Source: Candidatus Bathyarchaeota archaeon
GTDB taxonomy: Archaea; Thermoproteota; Bathyarchaeia; 40CM-2-53-6
Direction: 5' to 3'
DNA length: 64,000 bases
Assembly (NCBI GenBank): GCA_963726255.1
Contig: CAVSBL010000002.1
Span: 256,001-320,000, forward strand
The translations under genes were made by a program, and so were the position numbers. Positions 10,772 through 41,720 of the stretch are shown here, one piece after another; the first letter of the stretch is position 1; each line of letters starts with the position of its first letter. A model generated the notes under the pieces. It was not told the DNA's origin. It saw only the letters and a program-made list of their open reading frames with translations, and did no database searches.

Positions 10772-11000
10772 TGGTGGGGCCGAAGGGATTCTCATGGTTC
10801 TGGGGTGAACCATTTTGAACCCTCGACTTCCGCCATGCCGTCATGTCTACGGGTTTCTTCGCTCCTGAAGTTCGTCATTCCGTTCAGGTCCGCAAACCCG
10901 TTAAGGTTTGGTCTTCTGGAGCCCTTGGCGGGAACGTGTCCCTGTCGTCATCCCTGGCTAGAGTCCGTCACTCCCACGTGGTCACTGTGTCTACGGCCCC
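10772..11000 (-). tRNA. trnW: tRNA-Trp(CCA) with five introns (10963-10990, 10925-10943, 10855-10915, 10828-10846, 10789-10813)
   Basis: Six exons join to GGGGCCG TA GTCT AGCCAGGGA TGAC G ACGGG CTCCAGA CCCGT AGGTC GAGGG TTCAAAT CCCTT CGGCCCC A CCA (77 nt); all stems pair; BHB or relaxed BHB motifs at the junctions. Confidence 0.9.
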
Positions 11001-11133
11001 ACATCGGAACCGACAGGGCGGCCCCAGCCCAGTCAGCATAGGTAGTTGCTATATGGATTTTGGCTACTTTCAGCCGATACGCGTAGCCCGTCAAGTAGTA
11101 ATACTGCTATGCAGGAACTCTGGCTGAAGGTTC

Positions 11134-20702: not shown

Positions 20703-20827
20703 TGGCGCCGGGAGAGGGATTCGAACCCCCGAGGCCCGCAAGGGCCACAGGCTTGCGTTGAATCGTTCACTCAAGGCCTGCGCCTCTAGATCGAGTTCTC
20801 ACTGTTAATCCGCTCGGCCATCCCGGC
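20703..20827 (-). tRNA. trnS: tRNA-Ser(TGA) with two introns (D-loop 20786-20805; canonical 37/38 20754-20769)
   Basis: GCCGGGA/TCCCGGC acceptor, CAGGC-CTTGAGA-GCCTG anticodon arm, long variable arm, G73 plus CCA; D-loop intron BHB helix GGAT/ATCT; TATA CTTAAATA at 20851-20858. Confidence 0.92.
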
Positions 20828-41601: not shown

Positions 41602-41720
41602 GCCGGGGTTCCCGAGCCTGGTACGGGGCAGATGCACCTAAGCCTAAGCCTGGAATCAAAGGAACTGAAAGCCTGTGGTCCTCACGGGCCTCGAGGGTTC
41701 AAATCCCTCTCCCGGCGCCA
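41602..41720 (+). tRNA. trnS: tRNA-Ser(GGA) with two introns (29/30: 41632-41647; 37/38: 41656-41669)
   Basis: GCCGGGG/TCCCGGC acceptor; CAGGC-CTGGAAA-GCCTG after splicing; long variable arm; CCA; first intron BHB helix GGGC/GCCT. Confidence 0.9.

Follow-up and report, generated by a model that had tools for sequence, protein, structure and literature searches.

In a 64,000-nucleotide stretch of DNA from a Candidatus Bathyarchaeota archaeon (contig CAVSBL010000002.1, positions 256,001 to 320,000; hereafter the window), we found a tRNA-Trp(CCA) gene on the minus strand, from position 11000 to 10772, that consists of six exons and five endonuclease-type introns. We read it, with a probability that we put at roughly 0.7, as a gene whose precursor carries five introns with overlapping splice motifs, passes through successive folds and is spliced in a partial order. 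Their removal is presumably the work of the archaeal splicing endonuclease EndA, which cuts at bulge-helix-bulge (BHB) motifs; because the exons are very short, these motifs share bases and cannot all be folded at once, and maturation would have to pass from one fold to the next. An earlier note on the same DNA had claimed mutually exclusive pairings, ordered splicing and a target site common to introns 1 and 4. The interval to which it referred, 10828-10990, coincides exactly with the stretch from intron 1 through intron 4 in our gene model, and its layout of introns and exons agrees with ours, but it had overlooked both the tRNA-Trp identity of the gene and the guides in intron 3.

When the five introns are excised at the junctions listed in Table 1, the remaining 77-nt RNA is identified by ARAGORN as tRNA-Trp(cca) with an encoded CCA. 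That excision restores a cloverleaf tRNA is seen not only with ARAGORN but also from natural alleles lacking the intron at site 1 or site 4, in which CCGTAG is followed directly by TCTAGCC (12 sequences) or by GTC (5 sequences); because these intron-less homologues exist, the junctions of introns 1 and 4 are fixed to the base. Intron 3 could equally be placed at position 38/39 owing to a run of A. The precursor is 229 nt long, its exons measure 10, 19, 9, 8, 14 and 17 nt, and the D-stem of the spliced tRNA holds a T.T pair. In a search of the window, neither ARAGORN nor Rfam detected an RNA gene at the locus in unspliced DNA. A tRNA-Arg(GCG) with its anticodon loop inside the present intron 3 was considered and rejected: its "anticodon" is variable (GCG, ACC, GCA, GCC, ACT, TCT and others), and the supposed GCG is in fact the degenerate D'-like box. 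On the plus strand, a 94-aa open reading frame (ORF; window 10843-11127) lies antisense to the tRNA gene and is most likely spurious.

All five junctions lie in BHB motifs. By the published criterion the motif has two 3-nt bulges on opposite strands, and the cut follows the second bulge base; we scored the pairing of the four exon bases before the 5' bulge with the four intron bases before the 3' bulge, with 3-nt bulges. All four central pairs form in introns 1, 4 and 5 and three of four in introns 2 and 3, and every intron has a flanking helix of at least 2 bp (Table 1). The same geometry is kept across the homologues described below: the motif is canonical for intron 1 in 23/25 sequences, for intron 4 in 32/32 (always of the HBh' class) and for intron 5 in 29/37, and relaxed for intron 3 in 37/37 and for intron 2 in 28/37, while in the other 9/37 the central helix of intron 2 is complete, with the intron reading CGTC or CGTT. 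When the sites were moved by up to 6 nt, at most 0.9% were canonical. The inner helices vary in sequence yet remain paired; that of intron 5 occurs in three versions and is paired in 37/37. EndA-family proteins are encoded in the genome by two separate ORFs, 200 and 192 aa long (G000:C2:748279-748530 and 1451759-1451998). Such an arrangement fits a predicted alpha/beta enzyme, which is named in PMC5829648 as one of two types able to cut non-canonical introns.

Table 1. Coordinates of the tRNA-Trp(CCA) gene and its parts in the window, with splice-motif geometry of the introns (central helix; outer helix; inner helix)
Feature	Position	Strand	BHB geometry	Basis
Whole tRNA-Trp(CCA) gene, CCA encoded	10772..11000	-		ARAGORN on the spliced 77 nt
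Exon 1, tRNA 1-10, 3' end CCGTAG	10991..11000	-		12 homologues without intron 1, CCGTAG abutting exon 2
Intron 1, 28 nt, position 10/11	10963..10990	-	4/4; 2 bp; 3 bp	BHB
Exon 2, tRNA 11-28	10944..10962	-		Spliced model
Intron 2, 19 nt, position 28/29, splitting the 5' strand of the anticodon stem	10925..10943	-	3/4, A.C mismatch; 1 bp; 4 bp	BHB
CCGCCA in intron 2	10931-10926	-		Sequence
Exon 3, tRNA 29-37, anticodon CCA	10916..10924	-		Spliced model, homologues
Intron 3, 61 nt, position 37/38, putative box C/D-like guide intron	10855..10915	-	3/4, C34.A mismatch; 3 bp (5 bp once intron 2 is removed); 0	Relaxed BHB
Intron 3 guide to exon 4, 8 bp	10894..10901	-		Fifth base upstream of box pairs tRNA position 39
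D'-like CGGA box of intron 3	10892-10889	-		3' of the exon 4 guide
C'-like box ATGACGA of intron 3	10872..10878	-		ATGA-N-GA in 28/29 distinct parsed intron 3 sequences
12-nt guide to anticodon loop and degenerate D box AAGA	10856..10871	-		Fifth base upstream pairs C34
Exon 4, 8 nt ACCCGTAG, tRNA 38-45, shared strand	10854-10847	-		BHB geometry, modelled pairing
Intron 4, 19 nt, position 45/46	10828..10846	-	4/4; 0; 4 bp	BHB
TGGCGG in intron 4	10835-10830	-		Sequence
Exon 5, tRNA 46-59	10814..10827	-		Spliced model
Intron 5, 25 nt, position 59/60, T-loop	10789..10813	-	4/4; 5 bp; 6 bp	Strict hBHBh'
Exon 6, tRNA 60-76 with CCA	10772..10788	-		Spliced model

The conflict between the motifs centres on exon 4. 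Its bases C40-T43 make the 4-bp central helix of intron 4 with GCGG, and C39-C41 make the outer helix of intron 3, as had been noted earlier. Once intron 2 has gone, this outer helix, the sole flanking helix of intron 3, lengthens from C39-C41 (3 bp) to C39-T43 (5 bp), which is likewise the case in 34/37 homologues. Since the bases are shared, the motifs of introns 3 and 4 cannot coexist, and the claim of mutually exclusive pairings is supported by BHB geometry. A further partner of exon 4, missed earlier, is the 8-nt guide inside intron 3: in the full precursor modelled at 37 °C, exon 4 pairs with this guide with a probability of 0.67-0.92, with the central helix of intron 4 at 0.04 and in the anticodon stem at about 0. 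In all, four partners are open to exon 4: the interrupted 5' strand of the anticodon stem, which gives the weak intron 3 motif its only flanking helix; the GCGG of intron 4, which completes the central helix of that intron; the guide of intron 3; and, weakly, an ACGG of intron 1. Guide pairing, and with it methylation, and splicing would then be alternative states of one RNA. In the window's genus, intron 4 contains a near tandem 8-mer repeat, CATGACGG followed by CATGGCGG; the first copy is a second perfectly complementary partner of exon 4, and its use as central helix would shift the 3' cut by 8 nt.

To examine the order of removal, we folded the precursor and 30 partly spliced intermediates (31 RNAs) with RNAfold at 37 and 75 °C, taking as the measure the share of the ensemble in which the central helix is formed and both bulges are open. 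For intron 5 the motif hardly responds to context, with a spread below 3-fold, so this intron might be removed at any time. The intron 3 motif is the least likely one in every context that retains intron 2, and rises 40-fold at 75 °C and about 3000-fold at 37 °C after intron 2 is removed. At 75 °C the intron 4 motif gains about 70-fold from the loss of intron 3, at 37 °C only 1.5- to 5-fold; joint removal of introns 2 and 3 lowers the intron 4 motif at 37 °C unless intron 1 is gone too. From these models we infer a partial order in which intron 2 would leave before intron 3, introns 3 and 4 would never be cut from the same conformer and intron 3 would tend to leave late; anything as strict as a fixed order remains conjectural. 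Of the stepwise cascade proposed earlier, the dependence of intron 3 on intron 2 and the independence of intron 5 thus survive as a partial order, but not a unique cascade, as the other effects are temperature-dependent or noisy.

The gene is conserved far beyond the window. A 251-nt query around the site found matches in 35/41 genomes of the same order and in 20/22 of the genus, and the combined pattern of intron 3 and exon 4 occurred at 37 loci in 185,579 species genomes, of which 33 are titled Bathyarchaeia or Bathyarchaeota, one "uncultured archaeon" and three are bacterial-labelled bins. Three tRNA-Trp contigs (L038, L060, L062) lie in metagenome-assembled genomes titled Acidoferrum or Acidiferrales and are likely Bathyarchaeia contamination of these bins. 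Read side by side, 27 oriented homologues show invariant blocks alternating with variable stretches. An exon-anchored expression matched 55 of 69 loci over their full length, the 14 others being mostly at contig ends, and gave 37 distinct sequences; as the exon anchors were imposed by the expression, exon invariance is no independent result. The full set of introns 1 to 5 is present in 20/37 sequences, introns 2, 3, 4 and 5 in 7/37, the same four with a D-loop insertion in 5/37, and introns 1, 2, 3 and 5 in 5/37. Every version has four or five introns, intron 2 being present in 37/37, whereas introns 1 (25/37) and 4 (32/37) are patchy over families; the gene and its splice motifs are kept over ten families of one Bathyarchaeia order.

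Several variants were seen among these homologues. Five sequences without intron 1 (L016, L019, L020, L039, L045) have instead a D-loop insertion of 34-35 nt, which would be a sixth intron position of the gene family, but with the boundaries set by the search expression a BHB was found at it in 0/5. In the five sequences without intron 4 (L032, L037, L059, L067, L069), intron 2 measures 81-91 nt rather than the usual 16-20. In L013, L015 and L032, from two families, a partial copy of the 5' strand of the acceptor, 7-10 nt long and ending GAAG or GAAT, not GTAG, lies 4-20 nt upstream of the tRNA start; it could be a duplication remnant or a leader that pairs with the 3' end.

RNA data were available as assembled contigs from four runs of four studies, in which uncovered parts are uninformative. 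One contig of 249 nt (X1) spans 10772-11004 and thus the entire unspliced gene; another of 165 nt at a depth of 563 (X4) spans 10838-11002 and retains introns 1-3. A third, of 90 nt (X2), aligns with its letters 2-30 to 10882-10854 and with its letters 31-90 to 10914-10854, so that in RNA sense the end of intron 3 runs into its own beginning, a circular permutation whose junction lies at the predicted intron 3 splice sites within the ambiguity of the A run. The intron 3 variant in this contig has one base deleted and is 60 nt long; 60 + 30 = 90, as is obtained from a 60-nt circle in a 31-mer graph. The X1 and X2 contigs show that the precursor is transcribed and that intron 3 is cut out and closed into a circle. 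Intron 3 is the only one for which such an excised circle was seen in vivo; in the contigs of the four runs no excised intron 1, 2, 4 or 5 was observed. Two contigs (X7) start at the first base of exon 2 with six unaligned letters upstream, in which a spliced exon 1 and a divergent intron 1 end are indistinguishable. Circular tRNA-Trp introns have been reported in Haloferax and Sulfolobus, according to passages of PMC3326292 and PMC7714728.

The sequence of intron 3 points to a second role. All parsed versions share a layout: after a variable 5' part come the 8-nt guide to exon 4 and, separated from it by one base, a CNGA box; a small hairpin with covariation leads on to an ATGA-N-GA box, behind which lie a 12-nt guide and an xxGA element. 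The D' guide forms 8 bp with exon 4, and the fifth base upstream of CNGA lies opposite position 39 in all parsed sequences. The 12-nt guide is complementary to the anticodon loop, G31-G37, over 10 positions with one mismatch; with a 12-nt spacer, as in the window's genus and at L013-15, L014, L018, L021 and L023, the fifth base lies opposite C34, and L023 has a canonical CTGA where the window has the degenerate D box AAGA. Genes for fibrillarin and Nop5 are present in the genome. The archaeal pre-tRNA-Trp guide intron (Clouet d'Orval 2001 and Singh 2004), as described in passages of PMC4090602, PMC11408192, PMC7994747 and PMC3326292, is an intron of about 60-105 nt at 37/38 that is complementary to positions 34 and 39 and is circular and stable when excised; in Haloferax positions 34 and 39 are the targets (in passages of PMC4090602 and PMC11408192), while the intron of Sulfolobus keeps both complementarities without consensus boxes, that of S. 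solfataricus measuring 65 nt with two 7-bp complementarities (in passages of PMC3326292). Intron 3 likewise sits at 37/38 with guides opposite 39 and 34. It differs in being one of five introns, in that its position 39 target lies in the 8-nt micro-exon that intron 4 also needs, and in its missing terminal C box and degenerate D box. Judging from sequence, we suggest that intron 3 works like the box C/D tRNA-Trp guide intron, full membership not being claimed, and that it is the ancient intron of tRNA-Trp, its box C/D-like guides being directed at positions 34 and 39, where ribose methylation is predicted. An exon heptamer at tRNA 21-27 (window 10950-10956) is identical to the C'-like box ATGACGA of intron 3 (10872-10878); it might supply the C box that intron 3 lacks, or the match may equally be a coincidence, as the heptamer is part of the D-stem and position 26.

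Introns 1 and 4 were said in the earlier note to begin in an identical context, and this is so: the 9-mer CCGTAGACA occurs exactly twice in the 64 kb, at 10996-10988 and 10852-10844, that is, at the 5' junctions of these two introns, against an expectation of 0.31 per window by shuffling (two copies were reached in 5/100 shuffles). The TGACGG that both introns contain (10970-10965 and 10843-10838) carries no weight, the hexamer occurring 40 times in the window with 33 expected; moreover, the two occurrences are not equivalent because they have different roles, as the end of the inner helix plus central strand in intron 1 and as part of the internal near-repeat in intron 4. The intragenic transposition inferred from these resemblances finds no backing in the window itself, where likeness is limited to the ends constrained by the common exon context, but does in a relative. 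In genome G031, introns 1 and 4 are identical at 16/17 positions, including 10 unconstrained interior bases, and the interior score of 10 compares with a maximum of 6 in 380 non-self pairs. In its congener G039 they are identical at 12/16 and both A-rich, which is suggestive. With 6-nt flanks as BLAST queries, the five introns gave only chance 10-12-mers elsewhere in their own genome and no copies. From this we conclude that in at least one lineage duplication or conversion has carried sequence between the sites of introns 1 and 4; for intron 1 in the window, an origin as a copy of intron 4 is plausible, not demonstrated. Intron 1 sits in a second copy of the exon hexamer CCGTAG, a context in which a 3' end of the intron 4 type (RCGG plus two bases) can give rise to a splice motif at 10/11.

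Could the likeness have arisen from unrelated introns? The first base A, the CA/TG inner pair and RCGG are exactly the elements used in the splice motif, the interiors in the window are unlike (4 against 3.6) and those of intron 1 are hypervariable even within a genus, all of which would fit convergence, with G031 as a later gene conversion. We consider this unlikely, though a serious contender, as 10 unconstrained interior bases are identical in G031, G039 shows 12/16 in one A-rich type, and in the G031/G039 genus intron 1 takes after the intron 4 of the same gene and is unlike intron 1 in the window's genus; besides, a gene conversion would in itself be a transfer of sequence between the two sites. 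A more elaborate picture than our partial order with copying in at least one lineage, and in our judgement a rather improbable one, makes exon 4 a conserved three-way switch that forces the order of tRNA-Trp maturation and adds recurrent gain of intron 1 by reverse splicing of intron 4. Guide pairing, with methylation of 39 and 34, would come first, then removal of intron 2 and then of intron 3, intron 4 leaving only from an alternative fold; and excised intron 4 would be reverse-spliced into the CCGUAG look-alike of the same transcript and copied back into DNA.

Opposed to any order is the view that the overlaps are the geometric result of five introns in 77 nt and that EndA takes whichever motif is open. 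Introns 1, 4 and 5 are indeed canonical in the full precursor, the modelled probability of every motif is non-zero in every context, and the RNA contigs show an unspliced precursor with all introns. Against this stand the state of intron 3 before intron 2 is removed, when a single 3-bp helix flanks its motif and includes a base that doubles as the 3' bulge base of intron 2, the 40- to 3000-fold modelled gain on removal of intron 2, and precedents in which close introns need iterative removal (passages of PMC8450103) or ordered removal was demonstrated in a red alga (passages of PMC3728597); the view of order-free cutting seems doubtful to us. A selected lock, in which CCGCC of intron 2 pairs with GGCGG of intron 4 and closes both motifs until methylation or removal of intron 1, is improbable. 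The earlier claim that CCGCCA and TGGCGG can pair holds, in that a 6-bp Watson-Crick pairing is possible and conserved, at least five contiguous pairs being found in 32/32 homologues with both introns against 11% of shuffles, with a modelled probability of 0.14-0.19 at 37 °C and 0.37-0.51 at 60 °C; and in 23/32 sequences CGCC mismatches its own exon partner while matching intron 4 perfectly. Both words are, however, already fixed by their own motifs (inner closing pair and central strand against invariant exon bases), CGCC is kept in 4/5 sequences without intron 4, and no compensatory change specific to the pairing was seen among these homologues. The exon skipping suggested earlier likewise has a formal basis, a cross BHB that joins the 5' splice site of intron 1 to the 3' splice site of intron 4 with 4/4 central pairs and flanks of 2/2, canonical in 20/20 homologues with both introns and formally equal to the cognate motifs. 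Since exon 1 is held in the acceptor stem, the model gives this pairing a probability of about 0, and skipping is at most possible. That the locus is a decayed or non-functional tRNA-like relic seems scarcely credible: standard detectors are blind to it and its D-stem has a T.T pair, but the gene and all its splice motifs are conserved over ten families, it is abundant in RNA libraries with intron 3 excised, and among the 30 ARAGORN (intron mode) and 25 Rfam tRNA matches of the whole 2.42-Mb, 98.5%-complete genome no other tRNA-Trp was found.

Several observations weigh against the partial-order reading that we prefer. The absolute modelled BHB probabilities are low, from 1e-8 to 0.3, as expected for enzyme-stabilised motifs, and from 37 to 75 °C several effects of context reverse or differ in magnitude; for these reasons the model cannot rank all steps. 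In the contigs of the four RNA runs, no spliced junction or partly spliced intermediate was seen, so that they are silent on splicing order, and assembled contigs drop rare RNA forms. The intron 3 motif has the C34.A mismatch and lacks an inner helix in 37/37 sequences, which leaves its recognition by EndA unexplained. Roughly half of the lineages have a 13-nt spacer in intron 3, for which the fifth-base rule gives position 33 and not 34; C' and D' boxes are present and D is AAGA, but the terminal C box is absent, leaving intron 3 without the full C and D pair of a terminal kink-turn. The interior similarity of introns 1 and 4 in the window (score 4) does not stand out from that of non-cognate pairs (non-self mean 3.6). 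Finally, a second tRNA-Trp gene is conceivable, as most tRNA genes of the host escape the detectors: only 2 of the 30 tRNA-like genes called by ARAGORN in intron mode over the whole genome are uninterrupted, Rfam tRNA reaches its cut-off 17 times, and the tRNA genes of this genome are probably for the most part interrupted more than once and missing from annotation. Two of the ARAGORN calls fall in the window, at 20703-20827 and 41602-41720: an intron-bearing Thr(cgt) and a Phe(aaa) that is doubtful.

None of the ingredients is new in kind: motifs that exclude one another, introns removed in order, introns that transpose and a guide intron in tRNA-Trp are all known. The multi-intron tRNAs of Thermoproteales (Sugahara 2007/2008, as summarised in passages of PMC4033280 and PMC8450103) have introns at non-canonical positions with strict or relaxed BHBs, spaced so tightly that a motif can form only after the neighbouring intron has gone. 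They have at most three introns, whereas here there are five, and four or five throughout an order, and the host belongs to Bathyarchaeia of soil, peat and groundwater and is not a hyperthermophile. Three per gene is also the maximum given for archaea in passages of reviews and of the tRNAscan-SE 2.0 paper (PMC4033280, PMC8450103). A 2026 preprint (10.64898/2026.10.13.758758) reports up to five intervening sequences per tRNA gene in Asgard archaea, at BHB-compatible sites and many missed by annotation, but in another phylum; in our literature search, archaeal tRNA genes with four or five introns appeared only there, although supplementary tables could list others, and no publication on Bathyarchaeia tRNA introns was found. 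In Cyanidioschyzon merolae, passages of PMC3728597 describe an ordered BHB removal that correlates with motif stability, the anticodon-arm intron leaving last as modelled here for intron 3; that is a eukaryotic alga with experimental intermediates, whereas ours is modelling alone. In known tRNA intron transposition, too, similar introns occupy different sites, and the need for a BHB is taken to determine which sites can be targets; the transfer there is between different tRNA genes and not between two sites with the same hexamer in one gene. What is new is the combination of these features in one conserved five-intron Bathyarchaeia gene, the 8-nt exon with three competing partners and the within-gene intron copy behind a repeated exon hexamer.

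An essential gene with five introns, conserved over an order of abundant soil and sediment archaea, extends the three-intron limit outside Asgard archaea and explains why standard tools report zero tRNA-Trp in Bathyarchaeia genomes of this order. With a 229-nt substrate and one enzyme, the system is tractable for asking whether EndA removes crowded introns in an order and how splicing is coordinated with guide-RNA pairing. The near-identical introns of G031 are a rare direct trace of intron gain by copying and bear on how archaeal tRNA introns arrived; if true, reverse splicing of intron 4 into CCGUAG would be the first traceable case of the spread of an archaeal tRNA intron.

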